Of a stretch of 12,733 bases of DNA, positions 5,237 to 11,879 are shown one piece after another. Each line of letters starts with the position of its first letter. Position 1 is the first letter of the stretch. Made by a program: the position numbers and the translations under genes. Under the pieces are notes generated by a model, which was given only the letters and a program-made list of their open reading frames with translations, made no database searches and was not told the origin of the DNA. The DNA is from a virus, in the UHGV virus genome UHGV-0125529; one strand, given 5' to 3'.

Positions 5237-7117
5237 ATGACTCCAAGTGAACTGAGCGACCTGCTTTGGGCGCAGGTTGACAGGGTGGCTCCGCACCTGT
5301 TGCCAAACGGCAAGAAAGAGGGGCATGAGTGGGTTGCCGGTAACGTTAACGGTGACAAGGGAAACAGCCTTAAGGTCAACCTTAGCGGCAAGAAAAAATG
5401 GGCTGATTTCGCTGAGGGAGACGGCGGTGACATGCTTGATTTGTGGATGGCATGTCGTGGAATTAACCTGCATCAGGCTATGCAGGAAGCGAAAGCATTT
5501 CTCGGTATCAAGGATGACGATCACCATTTCGATGCCAGACGTGAGAAGAAATTCTCCAGACCTGATCGCAAGAAAATCGCCAGTTACGTTACCAGAACAG
5601 AATCCCATCTTGAGTACCTGCAATCGCGTGGCATATCGCCAGAAGTCGTAAAGCGCTACGAGGTTGTCAGCGGCAAGGTGTGGAATGGAGAGCGGGAACT
5701 GGATGCTCTGGTGCTTCCGTACAAACGCGATGGTGAGTTGTTGCAGGTCAAGCGAATCAGCACTGAGCGCCCGGACGGGAAGAAAGTCATTATGGCAGAA
5801 GGTGATTGCGAACCTTGTCTGTTCGGATGGCAGGCTCTGGACGCTGGCGTGAGGGCGGTTGTACTTTGCGAAGGCGAAATTGATTGTATGAGCTATGCGC
5901 AATACGGCATCTCGGCGTTATCCGTGCCGTTTGGTGGCGGGAAAGGCGCTAAGCAGCAGTGGATTGAGTTTGAGTATCACAACCTCGACAGGTTTGAGGA
6001 AATATTCATCTCGATGGATGTTGATGATGTTGGTCGTGAAGCCGCAAGGGAAATCGCAAGCCGACTCGGTGAACATCGTTGCCGTCTTGTTACTCTGCCG
6101 TACAAAGACATCAACGAATGCCTGATGAACGGTGTTACCGAGGATGAAATCTGGCAGTACATCGGCACGGCATCCTACTTCGATCCTGAAGAACTCTACA
6201 GCGCGCGAGAGTTTTACCAGGACACTATCAACGCTTTCTACGGCAAGCAGCAGTATCTGTTTAATCCACCGTGGGAATCTCTGGCAGATAAATTCCAGTT
6301 CCGTGAGGCCGAGTTGACGCTGGTCAATGGTGTGAACGGTCACGGAAAAACGGAGGTTGTCGGGCATATGGCACTTGAGGCAATGCGTCAGGGTGTGAAG
6401 ACGTGCATCGCGTCACTTGAGCTGAAGCCTGGTATTCTCCTTAAGCGCCTTACCCGTCAGGCGACGTGCTGCAAGATGCCGCCAGTGCTGGAAATTGACT
6501 CTGCATTTAAATTTTATGACGAAAGACTTTGGGTGTTTGGCCTGACCGGAACGGCGAAAGCCGACAGGCTGATCGAAATATTCGACTACGCTCGCCGCCG
6601 ATACGGTATCCAGTTATTCATCATCGACAGCCTGATGAAATGTGGCATAGGCGACGATGACTATAACGGGCAGAAGGCGTTTGTTGACTCGATTTGCGAC
6701 TTCAAAAACAAAACAAACTCCCACGTCATTCTCGTTACTCACTCGCGAAAAGGAGACAGCGAAGAAAAACCAACCGGGAAAATGGACGTAAAAGGCTCTG
6801 GAGCGATAACAGACCTGACAGACAACCTTTTTATCATCTGGCGTAACAAGGCTCGCGAGAGAGCGTTACAGAGAGTTCAAAGCGGTGAACAGATGTCAGA
6901 GAAGGACGAACAGCTACTGGTGTCTCCGGCATCTGTTTTGTTGCTTGAAAAACAACGTAACGGTGAAGGTTGGGAAGGTGGTATCCCGTTGTTCCTTGAC
7001 GAGCAATCGCACCAGTTCCTGCAACTTGAATCAGGATCTCCATATAGCTACATCGCCAATATGCCGAAATCGGAATATGACGAGGCGTGGAGACAGGAAA
7101 ACGTGACGGAGTATTAA
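5237..7117 (+). CDS. Bifunctional DNA primase/helicase, T7 gp4-like (TOPRIM primase plus DnaB/RecA-fold helicase)
   Basis: 626 aa. TOPRIM-region motifs align with T7 gp4 as I remember it (EGEIDCMS; FISMDVDDVGREAA; LPYKDINECLMNG). Helicase part has Walker A GVNGHGKT, IIDSL (Walker B-like) and later motifs (ILVTHSRKG; KGSGAITDLTDNLFIIWRN). The N-terminal region lacks the Cys4 zinc finger. Confidence 0.9.
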   Translation: MTPSELSDLLWAQVDRVAPHLLPNGKKEGHEWVAGNVNGDKGNSLKVNLSGKKKWADFAEGDGGDMLDLWMACRGINLHQAMQEAKAFLGIKDDDHHFDARREKKFSRPDRKKIASYVTRTESHLEYLQSRGISPEVVKRYEVVSGKVWNGERELDALVLPYKRDGELLQVKRISTERPDGKKVIMAEGDCEPCLFGWQALDAGVRAVVLCEGEIDCMSYAQYGISALSVPFGGGKGAKQQWIEFEYHNLDRFEEIFISMDVDDVGREAAREIASRLGEHRCRLVTLPYKDINECLMNGVTEDEIWQYIGTASYFDPEELYSAREFYQDTINAFYGKQQYLFNPPWESLADKFQFREAELTLVNGVNGHGKTEVVGHMALEAMRQGVKTCIASLELKPGILLKRLTRQATCCKMPPVLEIDSAFKFYDERLWVFGLTGTAKADRLIEIFDYARRRYGIQLFIIDSLMKCGIGDDDYNGQKAFVDSICDFKNKTNSHVILVTHSRKGDSEEKPTGKMDVKGSGAITDLTDNLFIIWRNKARERALQRVQSGEQMSEKDEQLLVSPASVLLLEKQRNGEGWEGGIPLFLDEQSHQFLQLESGSPYSYIANMPKSEYDEAWRQENVTEY

Positions 7118-7146: not shown

Positions 7147-7178
7147 AGGCCTGCTGGTAATCGCAGGCCTTTTTATTT
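7147..7178 (+). terminator. Rho-independent terminator after the replication genes (tR2-like position)
   Basis: Hairpin AGGCCTGC(7147-7154)/GCAGGCCT(7163-7170) with an 8-nt loop, followed by TTTTATTT. Confidence 0.55.
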
Positions 7179-7206: not shown

Positions 7207-7422
7207 ATGAGTACGATAGCTGAGCTTGTCAGGGCTAATTTTCGTGAAGAGTTGGTGCGTTGGTATCGGTATCGTTCATCGTCCAGTTTGCCGCTTGATG
7301 AGTTGTATGAGCATTCACCTGCCGCACGACGCTATCCGCGTGACCGTGTTCTTCGACGGTTGTTCAAACTCAACAATGAGTTTCAGCGCAACAGAATTAT
7401 CCGGAGTCTGGATTTAAAGTGA
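7207..7422 (+). CDS. Hypothetical nin-region protein (71 aa)
   Basis: ATG at 7207 with RBS GGAGG about 9 nt upstream; no family recognised. Confidence 0.5.
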   Translation: MSTIAELVRANFREELVRWYRYRSSSSLPLDELYEHSPAARRYPRDRVLRRLFKLNNEFQRNRIIRSLDLK

Positions 7423-7432
7423 AGGAGTGAGC

Positions 7433-7615
7433 ATGAGCGAGCAAATATTCAGAGAGATTAAGCCACGGTTTTATCGCAAGGTAAGGGTAGTTTATCAGGA
7501 CGAAAACAAGACCTGTGCATACGCCATTCATAATGGTCGGTGGTCAGTGTTCGACACCAAAAACTTCGAGAAGAACTTCGAGAGGATTAAGGGTGATGAG
7601 GAAACTAACATTTGA
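7433..7615 (+). CDS. Hypothetical nin-region protein (60 aa)
   Basis: ATG at 7433 with RBS GAAGGAG 5 nt upstream (track lists a GTG start at 7427); its 3' end overlaps the ninB start by 20 nt. Confidence 0.45.
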   Translation: MSEQIFREIKPRFYRKVRVVYQDENKTCAYAIHNGRWSVFDTKNFEKNFERIKGDEETNI

Positions 7616-8012
7616 ACTAAGAAGCCCCATCCATCAGCAGAACGCCATTCAAGCTATCCAGCAAATTCTTCCAGACCCAACCAAACCAATCGTAGTAACC
7701 ATTCAGGAACGCAACCGCAGCATTCGGCAAAATGCACGCCTTCACGCGATGCTATCTGAAATAAGTAAGAAGGCTACATATCATGGAAAAGCAAGAAATA
7801 TTGAGTTTTGGAAGGGGTTATTCGTTTCTGGTTGGCAGATTGCAACCAACCAGCACCCTGAGATTATATCAGGGTTAGAAGGTGAGCTAATAAACATCAG
7901 AGAGAGTACGGCGACTCTATCTGTAAAAAAAATATCCGAAATAATGGACTACATAGAAGCATATTGTGCCATGAACTCAATTAATCTTAGCGAATGGAGG
8001 AATTATGATTGA
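7596..8012 (+). CDS. ninB: NinB (Orf-family recombination protein)
   Basis: 138 aa from ATG 7596 (MRKLTFELRSPIHQQNAIQAIQQILPDPTKPIVVTIQERNRS...), closely matching my recollection of the lambda NinB N-terminus; the track ORF has a spurious N-terminal extension from 7515. Confidence 0.85.
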   Translation: MRKLTFELRSPIHQQNAIQAIQQILPDPTKPIVVTIQERNRSIRQNARLHAMLSEISKKATYHGKARNIEFWKGLFVSGWQIATNQHPEIISGLEGELINIRESTATLSVKKISEIMDYIEAYCAMNSINLSEWRNYD

Positions 8013-8607
8013 GGTTTGGGTAGATATCGAAGGAATTCCATTTTATCAGGTTAGCAATAAAGGAAATTTCAGGTCTATTACGAGGGAAATTACAGTAACA
8101 TCAACCAGACAGAGGCCATATAAGAAAATAATTAATGGCACTAGCGTAAAACCATTCAAGTGCAAGTCGACAGGATATCTTCAAATAAAGGTATACGGTA
8201 AGAAATACAGCACCCACAGGATAGTTGCGAAAGCATTCTGTACAGGGTTCTGTGATGGCTTGGTAGTTAATCACAAAAATGGGCAAAGAGATGACAATAG
8301 GGCTGAAAACCTTGAATGGGTATCACATTCTGAAAACTCAAAGCACGGATATAAACAAAATGGAAGAATACCTATATCGCTAGGTAAATTTAGTGGTGAT
8401 CATCCTGCCAGTAAAGCTGTTATTTCTACTGACATGAAAACTGGGGAGGAGGTTTATTATGAAGCAGCTATGGATGCTGTCAGAGAAGGATTTGATAGTT
8501 CGTCAATTAGTCGTTGCTGTAATGGCGAAAGCTCATATCACAAAGGAAGATTCTGGCGATTTGCAAATGAAACAATGAAAGCAAGATGGGGAGACAGGGC
8601 GGCATGA
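8005..8607 (+). CDS. HNH homing endonuclease (NUMOD4-like N-terminal motif, HNH core, C-terminal DNA-binding region)
   Basis: 200 aa; RBS GGAGG 4 nt before the ATG; N-terminal [20 protein letters not shown] (NUMOD4-like); HNH core HRIVAKAF...[25 protein letters not shown]; overlaps the ninB stop by 8 nt. Confidence 0.85.
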
Positions 8608-8753
8608 GGCGACAGCGACGAAGTTTCACCGACATCATCTGCGAAAACTGCAAATACCTTCCAACGAAACGCTCCAGAAATTTAGTTTTGAGCAGAATAC
8701 CATGATGTCAGTGCAAGGGGGAGAAAGTCTCCTCATTATCTGATTCGCAATTT

Positions 8754-8799
8754 ACGTGCATATTTAAATATTGCACGTTACAACGTGCATGTGTATAAT
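8754..8799 (+). promoter_or_regulatory. Sigma70-type promoter with overlapping palindromic operator for the downstream moron gene
   Basis: -35 TTGCAC (8771-8776), 17-bp spacer, consensus -10 TATAAT (8794-8799) with TG dinucleotides immediately upstream. Three copies of the ACGTGCA/TGCACGT motif in alternating orientation (8754-8760, 8772-8778, 8783-8789), including the palindrome TGCACGTT-AC-AACGTGCA across the -35 and spacer. Confidence 0.5.
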
Positions 8800-8830
8800 T
8801 GACTTATCAATCACAACACGAGATATGCTC

Positions 8831-9838
8831 ATGAAAAATGATGATGTTAGTGGGAAGGCCAAAGGCGGTAAGGCACGCGCGGCAAAAATGACAGCAGAGC
8901 AAAGAAAAGAATCCTCAAGAAAGGCTGTTGCCGCAAAAAAAGAAAAAGCTTTATTGCCCGTATCTGCGAATGAGGGAAAGTTAAAGATCGGTGATGCGGA
9001 ATTAGATGTCGCGGTTCTCGAAAATGGACGGCGTATCATATCACAAGCTTCTGTTTTTAAAGCATTTGGCCGACCACAAAGAGGGGGTAGAGCACCTCAA
9101 GAAGAGGGGGTGATCAATATGCCCGCTTTTATGGATGCTGCAAACCTTAAAAAATATATAAATCAAGATGTTATGGGTGTGATCAATAAGGTCAAATACA
9201 AGACGATTACTGGCTCCGTCCAGGAAGGTTATGACGCATCCATAATACCTCTTGTCTGCGATGTTTATTTAAAGGCAAGAGAGGCAGGCGCTATCACCAG
9301 GCCAAACCAGTTAGAGACAGCCAAGAAAGCTGAAATTCTGGTGCGCTCATTAGCTAAAGTCGGAATAATAGCGCTTGTTGATGAAGCGACGGGGTACCAG
9401 CGAGATAGAGAAAAAGATGCGCTCGCCAAAATACTCGAGGCCTTTGTCGCAAAGGAAATTCAACCTTATATTACAACATTTCCTGCTGATTATTATGAAG
9501 AGCTTTTCAGGTTAAGGGGCTTAGAATACCCGCCGGAAAATCCCCGCTTCCGGCCTCAGTATTTTGGCGTTTTGACAAATGATATCGTCTACAAGAGATT
9601 GGCACCAAACATCCTTGAGGAGCTTAAAAAGCAGAACGTAAAGGCCTCAAAAGGTACAAAGTTGTTTCAGGGGCTGACGCCAAATATTGGATATCAAAAA
9701 TTAAGAGAGCATCTGTCATCAACCGTTACGATTATGAAGCTATCTAACGACTATTCAGATTTTATTGCAAAAATGAATCGCCTGCATCCAAGGTTTGAGG
9801 ATGTGAAAACAGACGAACTGGATGATTCAGACAAGTAA
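8831..9838 (+). CDS. Hypothetical protein (335 aa) with lysine-rich N-terminal tail; moron-like cargo gene
   Basis: ATG at 8831 (alternative 8825), weak RBS; N-terminal basic tail KAKGGKARAAKMTAEQRKESSRKAVAAKKEK; has its own promoter/operator upstream and a terminator pair downstream. Family not recognised with confidence. Confidence 0.7.
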   Translation: MKNDDVSGKAKGGKARAAKMTAEQRKESSRKAVAAKKEKALLPVSANEGKLKIGDAELDVAVLENGRRIISQASVFKAFGRPQRGGRAPQEEGVINMPAFMDAANLKKYINQDVMGVINKVKYKTITGSVQEGYDASIIPLVCDVYLKAREAGAITRPNQLETAKKAEILVRSLAKVGIIALVDEATGYQRDREKDALAKILEAFVAKEIQPYITTFPADYYEELFRLRGLEYPPENPRFRPQYFGVLTNDIVYKRLAPNILEELKKQNVKASKGTKLFQGLTPNIGYQKLREHLSSTVTIMKLSNDYSDFIAKMNRLHPRFEDVKTDELDDSDK

Positions 9839-9845
9839 CAGTAAC

Positions 9846-9866
9846 CCACCTTCAGGTGGTTTTTTT
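9846..9866 (+). terminator. Rho-independent terminator
   Basis: CCACCT / AGGTGG stem around a short loop, followed by TTTTTTT, 8 nt after the stop of CDS 8831..9838. Confidence 0.7.
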
Positions 9867-9933
9867 GTACAAATCCTTCAGCGTAAGTTTACCTCCTTCA
9901 CTGCATTACTACTGACCATTGACAACTTAACAA

Positions 9934-9959
9934 ACCCAGCTTCGGCTGGGTTTTTTATT
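9934..9959 (+). terminator. Second rho-independent terminator
   Basis: ACCCAGC-TTCG-GCTGGGT hairpin (tetraloop) followed by TTTTTTATT. Confidence 0.7.
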
Positions 9960-9989
9960 GGTGAATTTTCAATATGAGAGGACATGACA

Positions 9990-10712
9990 ATGAACGAGCT
10001 GATAAATAGCAACGTCATCAAAATGACTAGCATTGAAATCGCTGAGCTTACAGGTAAGCGTCATGACAATGTGAAACGAACCATCGAAACGCTGGTTAAA
10101 AGTGGAGTTATCCGGCTTCCTCAAATTGAGGTTTCCGAAAGAATCAATAACTTAGGGTTCAATGTTCAGTACGAGCATTACGTCTTCGAAGGCGAAAAAG
10201 GTAAGCGCGACAGCATTATTGTCGTCGCTCAGTTGTCGCCGGAATTCACCGCTCGTCTTGTTGACCGTTGGCGAGAACTCGAAGGGGCAACCGCGAAAAT
10301 ACCACAAACCTTTTCTGAGGCATTGCGCCTTGCGGCCGACCTTGAAGACCAGAAGGCTGAACTGGAGAAACAGCTTGCTCTCGCAGCACCTAAAGTTGAG
10401 TTTGCCGATCGCGTTGGCGAGGCCAGCGGAATTTTGATTGGAAACTATGCAAAGGTTGTTGGAATTGGTCCAAACAAACTGTTTGCGTGGATGCGCGATC
10501 ACAAAATCCTTATTACTTCAGGTGCCCGGCGCAATGTGCCAATGCAGGAATATATGGAGCGCGGCTATTTCACAGTGAAAGAAACAGCGGTCAACACAAA
10601 TCACGGAATACAGATATCGTTCACCACAAAAATCACCGGGCGTGGTCAACAGTGGCTGACCAGAAAGCTGCTCGATAACGGAATGCTGAAAGTAACAGGG
10701 GAGGCTGCTTAA
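9990..10712 (+). CDS. Rha-family phage regulatory protein with C-terminal KilAC/antirepressor-like domain
   Basis: RBS GAGAGG 8 nt upstream of ATG 9990; N-terminal [24 protein letters not shown] is typical of the Rha N-terminal domain; C-terminal half (...[24 protein letters not shown]...) resembles KilAC/antirepressor domains. Confidence 0.75.
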
Positions 10713-11317
10713 TGGCTAAACCAGCGCGAAGGAAATGCAAAATATGCAAAGAATGGTTTCACCCGGCATTCTCAAATCAGTGGTGGTGCTGCCCGGAACA
10801 CGGAACTCAATTAGCACTCGAACGACGAAGTAAAGAACGCGAAAAAGCGGAAAAAGCAGCAGAGAAGAAACGACGACGAGAGGAGCAGAAACAGAAAGAT
10901 AAACTGAAGATTCGAAAACTCGCCTTAAAGCCCCGCAGTTACTGGATTAAACAAGCCCAACAAGCCGTAAACGCCTTCATCAGAGAAAGAGACCGCGACT
11001 TACCATGTATCTCGTGCGGAACGCTCACGTCTGCTCAGTGGGATGCCGGACATTACCGGACAACTGCTGCGGCACCTCAACTCCGATTTGATGAACGCAA
11101 TATTCACAAGCAATGCGTGGTGTGCAACCAGCACAAAAGCGGAAATCTCGTTCCGTATCGCGTCGAACTGATTAGCCGCATCGGGCAGGAAGCAGTAGAT
11201 GAAATCGAATCAAACCATAACCGCCATCGCTGGACTGTCGAAGAGTGCAGGGCCATCAAGGCAGAGTACCAACAGAAACTCAAAGACCTGCGAAACAGCA
11301 GAAGTGAGGCCGCATGA
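10712..11317 (+). CDS. ninG: NinG / Rap recombination-associated Holliday-junction endonuclease
   Basis: 201 aa, near-identical over most of its length to my recollection of lambda NinG (Rap), including the Cys-rich motifs ([10 protein letters not shown]...CCPEHG; CISCG...CVVCN); start overlaps the upstream stop (TAATG). Confidence 0.9.
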
Positions 11318-11360: not shown

Positions 11361-11879
11361 ATGGGCATAAGAGAACTAAACCTCACCAAAGAACAGCACG
11401 ATTGGCTGAATGGCTGGCTTGAACTGTGGGGCGCATGGGTTTATTCAGGTCGTCTGGAAAAGCGCATGAGCAGCGTAATAGCGAAGTTCATGGAGAGCGT
11501 AGAGCCGGGAAGAGTTATGACAAGACCAATGTGTAATGATGATGATGGAATGTTGATTTCTCAGGTCGTCGATTCCGTCATGTACATTGACAAGAAAGCC
11601 TTTGGCATCCTCCTCAGCTACTACGCTCATGGTTCATCTAAGAGAGCAATTGCATCCTACTATCACGCGACTGCAAAGCCACGCAAGATGTGTGGACGCG
11701 GTGGCGAGGGATGGAGAAAACCTTCACTGGCAACCTGTAGAAACGAAATTGACGATATCCTGAAAGCGTCATTATTTGTTTTGTACCAACCAATGCAAAA
11801 TGCTTTCAAAATGCGTAAACGTGTTGAGAAAGTTAAGCATGTTGCTGTTAAAAGCCTTGACATGCAATTAGCCATTTAG
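11361..11879 (+). CDS. Q: Late-gene antiterminator Q (phage 82 / QuuD-like family)
   Basis: 172 aa, RBS GGGAGAAG; motifs WGAW near the N-terminus and RPMCNDDDGMLISQVVD resemble the Q family found in phage 82 and E. coli QuuD; sits after ninG and before a strong promoter, as Q does in lambdoid phages. Confidence 0.8.
   Translation: MGIRELNLTKEQHDWLNGWLELWGAWVYSGRLEKRMSSVIAKFMESVEPGRVMTRPMCNDDDGMLISQVVDSVMYIDKKAFGILLSYYAHGSSKRAIASYYHATAKPRKMCGRGGEGWRKPSLATCRNEIDDILKASLFVLYQPMQNAFKMRKRVEKVKHVAVKSLDMQLAI
11847..11876 (+). promoter_or_regulatory. Candidate late promoter PR' (Q-utilisation region)
   Basis: Perfect -35 TTGACA (11847-11852), 18-bp spacer, -10 CATAAT (11871-11876), overlapping the 3' end of Q. 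Confidence 0.5.

Follow-up and report, generated by a model that had tools for sequence, protein, structure and literature searches.

A cassette of a divergent ninB core and a homing-type HNH gene replaces most of ninB in a lambdoid prophage and leaves the displaced ninB end on the endonuclease reading frame

How does an HNH endonuclease gene come to lie at the 3′ end of ninB, and why does its open reading frame (ORF) close with the last codons of ninB itself? The question is raised by the virus genome UHGV-0125529, a stretch of 12,733 nucleotides (nt), here called the window, which is the early-right/nin region of a lambdoid prophage. A first, sequence-only reading had proposed that a free-standing homing endonuclease gene was inserted in frame a few codons before the ninB stop. 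Comparison with phages in which ninB is uninterrupted gave a different anatomy, in which the two ends of a resident ninB flank a cassette that holds both a divergent ninB core and the HNH gene. It is fairly probable that this represents a free-standing homing endonuclease spreading together with an immune ninB segment, that is, intronless homing with co-conversion. The elements of the locus are as follows.

7596-8012, + strand: ninB (orf), complete but chimeric, a short form of 138 amino acids, with ATG at 7596 and TGA at 8010-8012.
7596-7721, + strand: resident HK022/lambda-type ninB 5′ segment, codons 1 to 42, ~96% identical to HK022 ninB.
7710-7721, + strand: conserved CGCAACCGCAGC, the end of the resident 5′ segment, where alleles join.
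7722-8577, + strand: the 856-bp cassette, comprising the divergent ninB core (codons 43 to 138 plus stop) and the HNH gene as far as ...ANETM.
7996-8012, + strand: the ninB/HNH junction, GGAGGAATTATGATTGA, with GGAGG at 7996-8000, the HNH ATG at 8005, and the ninB TGA at 8010-8012.
8005-8607, + strand: free-standing I-HmuI-like HNH endonuclease gene, 200 amino acids, identified by Pfam and by alignment to structure 1U3E.
8578-8607, + strand: displaced resident ninB end, the last nine codons (KARWGDRAA) and stop, identified from the HK022/lambda alignment and the translations.

Alignment with the uninterrupted ninB of HK022 and lambda, the check called for by the sequence-only reading, placed the borders of the cassette after 7721 and at 8577/8578. 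Base by base, the window showed ~96% identity to HK022 from the ninB start to 7721 and then no similarity until 8577. From 8577 to 8607 only one base differs from the HK022 ninB 3′ end, and the two sequences remain homologous past the ATGA and into ninE, up to 8681; the HK022/lambda sequence covering the ninB 3′ half and the ninE start contains GACGAAGCGCGACTGGCTCTGGAGTGGAAAGCGAGATGGGGAGACAGGGCGGCATGAG. Because the DNA match runs through the ATGA into ninE, the ninB tail on the HNH ORF reflects homology and not chance. A megablast search against lambda, HK022, P22, and hundreds of other phages gave matches only at 7596-7721 and ~8592-8681, and the cassette itself (7722-8577) showed no megablast similarity to lambda, HK022, or P22. 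The cassette replaces 285 nt (codons 43 to 137) of an HK022-type ninB, of which no more than 126 nt at the 5′ end and 30 nt at the 3′ end remain, and codons 43 to 138 of the present gene belong to a different NinB clade with no nucleotide similarity to lambda ninB. Thus, the proposed event survives as an HNH gene carrying a displaced ninB tail, but what took place was a replacement by a ninB core plus HNH cassette, not an insertion into a continuous gene. Likewise, the tail is in frame, as proposed, but the frame is now that of the HNH ORF and not that of ninB, since 856 nt is not a multiple of three.

The displaced 30 nt now provide the final nine codons of the HNH gene, its stop, and the ATGA overlap (8604-8607) with the ninE start. 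The KARWGDRAA end of the HNH ORF is identical to the lambda/HK022 NinB C terminus; the lambda ending quoted in the sequence-only reading agrees with the translation of the lambda genome (J02459). When lambda-type NinB tails were compared with the 1659 ORFs of the fetched loci by short-query BLAST, the best non-NinB matches were HNH C termini (E = 1.4e-4). In the E. coli (Escherichia coli) cassette, the sequence appears to have been rejoined to the lambda-type tail at ...ACAATG/AAAGCA..., the slash marking the joint.

At the ninB/HNH junction, the NinB C terminus reads ...LSEWRNYD. That this tail is encoded by the GGAGG and start codon of the endonuclease gene can be read directly at 7996-8012, where the junction bases specify R-N-Y-D and stop; the ribosome site and start codon of the cassette therefore supply the stop of NinB and the four codons before it, and the ninB and HNH ORFs share 8 nt (ATGATTGA). 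The chimeric protein is still a clear NinB, matching the Pfam NinB profile (PF05772) at 3.6e-40 (137.2 bits against a cut-off of 23.8; profile positions 2 to 129 of 131) and, by phmmer, lambda Orf structure 1PC6 at E = 1.2e-31, with residues 1 to 131 aligned to lambda residues 1 to 127. On this alignment L131 lies at lambda W127, and S132-E133 lie at lambda S128-D129. The W of ...LSEW is encoded by TGGAG, the ribosome site of the HNH gene, and relatives that have GGAGG, CTGGAG, or AGAGG at this position encode other residues there. The EW of the window is therefore probably not homologous to that of lambda L-A-L-E-W, as had been supposed, E133 aligning with D129 and the W coming from TGGAG. 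A MAFFT alignment of NinB tails did pair the window EW with the lambda EW. This pairing conflicts with the hidden Markov model/structure-based alignment and was set aside because the structure-based alignment and the HNH tail of locus L007 (see below) were preferred.

Taken together, the 1PC6 alignment, the TGGAG origin of the W, and the L007 tail place the ancestral break in ninB ~17 codons upstream of the stop. The window NinB thus lacks the whole 17-residue C-terminal helix, not just nine residues, and is not the near-full-length protein short of a few codons that was first described. It ends at the equivalent of lambda residue 134, with an unrelated WRNYD, and the C-terminal DNA-binding helix of lambda Orf (R132, W137, R140, and W141; PMC4118853) is not in it; part of this helix is now encoded at the end of the HNH ORF. 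In lambda Orf the helix makes a modest contribution to DNA binding (PMC4118853). The 136-residue NinB proteins of mEpX1/HK620 are natural short forms that are also without it, and the helix is therefore not needed for membership in the NinB family. We considered whether WR.YD could be a native NinB ending, given that mEpX1-type NinB ends in RRYE and the proteins of loci L085 to L087 end in DWRKYDMYS with no HNH gene. This was rejected: such tails consist of the ribosome site and start codon of any next gene, and the C-terminal tails of NinB alleles vary in general with that ribosome site. Comparison of WR.YD tails places the break no better than to within one or two codons.

The gene joined to ninB has the domains of a homing endonuclease, as listed here by residue.

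Residues 3-63 of the HNH protein: NUMOD4 (Pfam 1.5e-13, 51.2 bits, cut-off 23.4).
Residues 70-112 of the HNH protein: HNH_3 (Pfam 1.6e-11, 44.1 bits, cut-off 24.8).
Residues 145-181 of the HNH protein: I-HmuI NUMOD-like domain, a weak match (19.3 bits, under the cut-off of 27).

Both Pfam and the HK022/lambda alignments bore out the proposal that the ORF is a homing-type HNH gene at the ninB 3′ end with displaced ninB codons. By phmmer, residues 55 to 186 aligned with residues 36 to 170 (of 174) of I-HmuI in structure 1U3E (E = 4.8e-14). I-HmuI is the intron-encoded nicking enzyme of Bacillus phage SPO1. The alignment stops at ...HKGRFWRF (residue 186), leaving 14 further C-terminal residues, of which 9 are from ninB, so that the displaced codons fall beyond the end of the I-HmuI fold. 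H90, N102, and N111 of the HNH motif are invariant in 30 homologues. Compared with the HNH gene of Salmonella phage SEN22, the proportion of nonsynonymous differences (pN) was 0.13 and that of synonymous differences (pS) was 0.79, a sign of purifying selection on the gene; saturation of the synonymous sites precluded a dN/dS value. The gene is a separate ORF that overlaps the ninB stop and the ninE start and is in this sense free-standing (no Rfam or intron search was made). By analogy with I-HmuI, the window enzyme is probably a site-specific nickase.

How widely the cassette is shared was examined in complete genomes and phage records. It was found in 77 of 5426 complete E. coli genomes (~1.4%), full length in every case, with core and HNH gene unseparated in all 77. 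At an identity of at least 99%, it was also present in 63 phage records, all with the HNH gene, including Shiga toxin 2a (Stx2a) phages of O157:H7, vB_EcoS_P27, Stx2 phage 86, Lahn2, and APC_JM3.2; the SEN22 cassette has 81% identity and likewise contains the HNH gene. Prophages of the porcine E. coli strains ETEC1720 and PEC301 matched at 99.8%. Across 31 loci the E. coli cassette is at least ~95% identical; grouped by the adjoining 300 nt, these loci show at least 11 contexts upstream and at least 10 downstream. NinB residues 1 to 42 come in eight variants, lambda-like or HK022-like, all joined to one core. The next gene varies as well and can be ninE, Dam methylase (also Dam methylase plus ninE), ninC, or ninD. 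Since the same cassette precedes ninC, Dam methylase plus ninE, ninE, or ninD in other phages, the suggestion that the HNH gene takes the place of the ninC-ninF block does not hold.

Endonuclease-free ninB alleles, which the sequence-only reading had asked for in relatives, are common. HNH-free lambda/HK022-type ninB gave matches in 2161 E. coli genomes, and an uninterrupted ninB followed by ninE is found in HK022, lambda, and many E. coli prophages. An HNH-free allele of the same core was found neither in 50,697 phage records and 5426 E. coli genomes nor among the sampled loci with NinB of more than 57% identity; the nearest HNH-free NinB relatives are those of L055 (57%) and L011 (55.6%). 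A few decayed pairs were also seen. At L041 and L043 ninB is frameshifted and the HNH gene intact, at L021:2910-3077 the HNH gene is truncated at residue 55, and at L104:2001-3395 (Mixta sp.) it is interrupted by ~730 bp.

Beyond E. coli, a NinB search of 5.8 billion proteins recovered a broad clade sharing the core. P0009, P0010, P0018 (Yersinia kristensenii), P0017, and P0020 (Pantoea), at 56 to 67% identity, each carry an HNH_3 gene that overlaps the ninB stop, and HNH-bearing NinB relatives of 56 to 88% identity span Salmonella, Yersinia, and Pantoea. Among 96 NinB loci, those with NinB of at least 56% identity have an HNH gene at the same spot, except L055, and below 56% almost none do. 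Close relatives do share the NinB ending ...SEWRNYD or ...SEWRNYE but, where examined, carry the HNH gene, whose C terminus matches NinB tails. From the HNH side, close relatives from other taxa have a NinB-family ORF immediately 5′ in seven of eight cases, the exception being from Pseudomonas aeruginosa; the HNH-profile search of genome contigs returned mostly distant HNH genes, with about seven close relatives being informative, and the distant HNH genes at its loci had no NinB-family ORF immediately upstream. On these comparisons, the ninB-HNH arrangement is old and widespread and not a recent local event.

The ninB-like tail is not peculiar to the window either. In many HNH homologues the extra C-terminal residues resemble the NinB C-terminal region, with differing start points. 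A good example is L007, in which the HNH protein ends in DAKEQAIDWARRFGETKRAA; spliced to its own NinB (...GMNNITLED), this tail aligns with the lambda tail with only two extra residues (TK) and includes the equivalent of lambda DEARLALEW. Other HNH tails are ...WRFAH-AFGTQRGVEWSPTSLGRAA (P0189) and ...AAEHGVRWSEYRRADA (P0190), each from a gene directly 3′ of ninB, ...DRHGVRWSE... (P0191), ...AYGDKHGVRWTGE... (P0216), ...DADTAEIKQWIGYSGDKNRSAA (L012), and ...SAVMRWAQQHNRSSAA (L013), and in SEN22 the tail is shortened to ...ERMAA. For comparison, the NinB of L011/P0021 (55.6% identity, same clade, no HNH gene) has an intact long tail, ...CDEDLSIKKWSARWGA. Two architectures occupy the ninB 3′ site, NUMOD4-HNH as in the window and HNH_3 plus AP2 as in L007, L008, and L046. 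AP2-type enzymes elsewhere stop just past the ...GEFARY motif, and the 20 extra residues of L007 and L008 are therefore not native to the AP2-type family.

Mirror-image arrangements occur at 5′ gene ends. At L042:1912-2905 (IMGVR_UViG_2751185961_000005), ninB codons 1 to 32 are fused in frame to an HNH_3 plus AP2 endonuclease; next come a new ribosome site and a divergent ninB 5′ end (MKCVKYHLTNESIRYNAIQYLRTCDLDIIVEFKQ-RNRS...) that substitutes for the original. L042 matches the window without a difference through position 7691 and from 7710 onward, so that window positions 7692-7709 are the exact empty site of its HNH-AP2 element; the arrangement was found in 8 of 5426 E. coli genomes. At L033:3509-4563 (IMGVR_UViG_2703719355_000002), the first nine codons of a Dam methylase gene (MTIKSNTPA) are fused to an HNH-AP2 gene, and the methylase follows with a substitute N terminus (MIKHKSETPKEVRDCWQTPLW...). 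Extra HNH_3/AP2-type genes were also observed one or two genes 3′ of the ninB-HNH pair (L014:2306-3043 and L101:2727-3224), and the nin region seems to collect endonuclease genes of this type.

How could such a cassette have spread? According to the intronless homing with co-conversion favored here, the endonuclease would nick or cut ninB alleles without the cassette when another lambdoid phage or prophage shares the cell. The break would then be repaired from the cassette-bearing genome, and the HNH gene would be copied together with the adjacent divergent ninB core, which would keep NinB functional while removing the target site. The crossovers would lie, on the left, in the conserved stretch of codons 30 to 42 and, on the right, in the ninB tail. 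Two signatures of homing are seen at the locus, a presence/absence polymorphism at the same site and a divergent target segment between recipient-type flanks, and the window and L042 form an exact empty/occupied pair for a second HNH gene. Furthermore, the HNH gene overlaps both neighbors and so can sit in the translationally coupled nin operon without interrupting it.

Several observations weigh against this account. First, the residue before the catalytic His is Asn in the window protein (VVNHKNG) and Asp in I-HmuI (VVDHKDG), where this Asp is a metal ligand; activity of the window enzyme is thus no more than plausible. Second, the right junction shares only ~1 base, and this joint looks illegitimate or else inherited from an ancestor with a longer tail. 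Third, NinB and HNH identities fall together, from 85/78% in SEN22 to 62/66% (L009), 59/63% (L013), and 56/55% (L012); the two genes have stayed together throughout much of the Enterobacterales, a pattern that a useful partnership could explain as well. Fourth, a ninB tail can be captured without an endonuclease, as a dam gene with a displaced ninB-tail fragment shows. Finally, cleavage, the target site, and HNH-dependent inheritance are predictions for the window protein and its close relatives.

The dam gene in question is that of phage P27. The methylase (3′ end of its gene at L001:4650-4740) ends ...AALMAIGQGVRRAA, with the C terminus ...AIGQGVRRAA, and the DNA GGCGATCGGGCAGGGCGTCAGG matches the short-type ninB tail of mEpX1, AWAIGQGVRFTDRRYE (L006:1150-1204), at 18 of 22 nt.

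An alternative in which the endonuclease is a passenger has to be taken seriously, but we regard it as unlikely. The ninB-HNH pair would then be a passive mosaic module that recombination, whether homologous or illegitimate, exchanges at conserved gene ends. Indeed, the nin region is strongly mosaic, with flanks that change at the ninB start and the HNH stop; the AIGQGVR fragment of dam, with its match to the mEpX1 ninB 3′ end, is just such a displaced ninB tail; and NinB allele tails vary with the ribosome site of the next gene. Passive shuffling would not lead one to expect two unrelated homing-type HNH architectures at one ninB site, further HNH genes of mirror-image design at the 5′ ends of ninB and dam, or close HNH relatives after ninB at seven of eight loci from diverse taxa. 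Nor does it sit well with purifying selection on the HNH gene or with borders that lie inside ninB and not only at gene boundaries.

A functional partnership is improbable in our view. Here the HNH protein would act jointly with NinB in phage recombination or in the restart of replication, for instance by introducing nicks for NinB to process, and the pair would be kept for its benefit to the phage. The conserved gene order, the purifying selection on both genes, and their in-step divergence in E. coli, Salmonella, Yersinia, and Pantoea are what such a partnership predicts, as is the unseparated state of core and HNH gene in 77 E. coli genomes, and NinB-HNH fusion proteins of Gram-positive phages have been read as cooperation (PMC2034487, PMC4118853). 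However, those fusions carry a different, zinc-finger HNH (PMC4118853), and an HNH partner is absent from most NinB genes, among them the lambda gene, whose function has been studied. The partners come in two architectures with modules typical of sequence-specific homing enzymes (NUMOD4 and AP2), the ninB tails on their ORFs look like insertion scars of varying length, and in decayed copies one gene is broken and the other intact.

Simple in-frame insertion of the endonuclease gene alone into a continuous ninB, at the W/K codon boundary that lies nine codons from the stop, can be set aside as very improbable: removal of 7998-8577 does give a NinB end resembling that of lambda, and MAFFT pairs the two EWs, but ninB codons 43 to 138 are not lambda-type, the 1PC6 alignment is gapless with E133 at D129 whereas the EW/EW pairing requires a 7-residue gap, relatives have no W at that position, and the L007 HNH tail puts the ancestral break 17 codons before the stop.

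Returning to homing with co-conversion, a broader generalization can be offered only tentatively. ninB and dam could be hot spots for end-capturing homing cassettes in lambdoid phages, each combining fusion to the terminal codons of the target with a substitute, cleavage-immune gene segment. End capture may take the start codon of the target when it occurs at the 5′ end, as for L042 ninB and L033 dam, and the stop and coupling signal when it occurs at the 3′ end, as for the window and its relatives. The C-terminal helix captured from NinB may also aid the DNA binding of the endonuclease or its interaction with NinB.

Outside the ninB-HNH pair, the window begins with genes for a cI-like repressor, cro, cII, and an O-like gene, in this order, and continues as follows.

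5237-7117: primase/helicase gene.
7207-7422: DUF7301 gene.
7427-7615: small ORF.
8604-8705, + strand: ninE 5′ remnant, of which the first 26 codons match NinE, with homology to 8681 followed by unrelated sequence and a stop.
8771-9838: P63C-domain gene.
9984-10712: Rha/KilAC roi-like gene.
10712-11317: ninG.
11361-11879: Q.

Positions 8600-10000 share 99.4% identity with phage 933W, which has this ninE remnant, the P63C gene, and roi 3′ of its Dam methylase gene. Just 5′ of the P63C gene, the heptamer TGCACGT/ACGTGCA occurs three times (8754-8760, 8773-8779, and 8784-8790, in the region 8754-8799) as nested inverted repeats that span a TTGCAC-17 nt-TATAAT element; these may be the operator and promoter of the P63C gene. 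A strong terminator-like hairpin at 7147-7170, with an 8-bp stem containing 6 G-C pairs and followed by a T run, lies directly 3′ of the primase/helicase gene and before the DUF7301 gene and ninB.

If the homing account is true, site-specific nucleases, and not only chance recombination, would drive part of the mosaicism of the nin region, including that of O157:H7 Shiga toxin phages, and the recombination-mediator gene ninB would be a recurrent target. Fusion to terminal codons together with a replacement gene segment would solve the problem that a selfish gene faces in a tightly coupled operon. The three instances described here provide occupied/empty site pairs that can be tested, and the "NUMOD4 domain-containing protein" found beside NinB in ~1.4% of complete E. 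coli genomes can be given a likely role. There is also a warning for annotation, in that the last nine codons of the HNH ORF and the odd NinB C terminus are junction artifacts and not family features.

How does the locus compare with what is known? The gene pair has already been deposited and annotated as NinB plus an HNH endonuclease or NUMOD4 protein, including in many Shiga toxin phages, and HNH boxes are drawn in a published map of the ninR region (Curtis 2014, PMC4118853). A literature search found no description of a homing endonuclease in ninB or of a displaced-tail fusion, and none of the cassette structure, the occurrence of displaced ninB tails throughout an HNH subfamily, the sharing of one site by two architectures, or the mirror-image arrangements at 5′ gene ends. 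Free-standing homing endonucleases are themselves of a known kind; the fusion pattern appears to be previously undescribed.

The window enzyme resembles I-HmuI (1U3E) in having an HNH_3 core followed by a C-terminal helix-turn-helix/NUMOD-like DNA-binding end. Unlike I-HmuI, it is encoded by a free-standing gene and not in a group I intron, has an additional N-terminal NUMOD4 and 14 extra C-terminal residues, and contains Asn in place of Asp before the catalytic His, and its activity is predicted. As a process, intronless homing with co-conversion is known from the T4-type enzymes SegB and MobE and from ICP1 nucleases at the boundaries of genetic exchange (PMC2330249, PMC2790892, PMC2988022, PMC10448857). 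There, as here, the endonuclease gene is found next to or within a conserved gene, occupied and empty alleles coexist, divergent neighboring sequence would protect carriers, and mosaic tracts lie between recipient-type flanks. The window differs in being from a temperate lambdoid phage with the recombination-mediator gene ninB as the putative target, known here from sequence alone, in the fusion of the endonuclease ORF to the displaced terminal codons of its target, and in a cassette that supplies the substitute part of that target.

Three further systems resemble parts of this design. In the lambdoid (P22-like) phage epsilon34, gene 31 consists of the eaE N terminus fused in frame to a putative HNH homing endonuclease (PMC2629481); its ORF opens with the start of the invaded gene, as at the 5′ ends of L042 ninB and L033 dam. 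That case, however, is in the early left operon and is a single anecdote, without analysis of a substitute gene end or a C-terminal version. In the methylase genes of ShiLan-type actinophages (PMC11855218), an HNH homing gene is also embedded in such a way that the frame of the host gene stays usable. There the insertion is an in-frame internal methylase loop with the HNH gene in another frame (PMC11855218), whereas the ninB of the window ends early and is rebuilt from a substitute segment, and the HNH ORF reads the displaced end. Finally, Orf/NinB-HNH fusions (DUF968; PMC2034487, PMC4118853) also bring together a NinB-family domain and an HNH nuclease. Those are single polypeptides with a zinc-finger HNH, whereas ninB and the HNH gene of the window are two ORFs in different frames (ninB stop at 8010-8012), and the nuclease is of the homing type, with HNH_3 and no DUF968 in Pfam.

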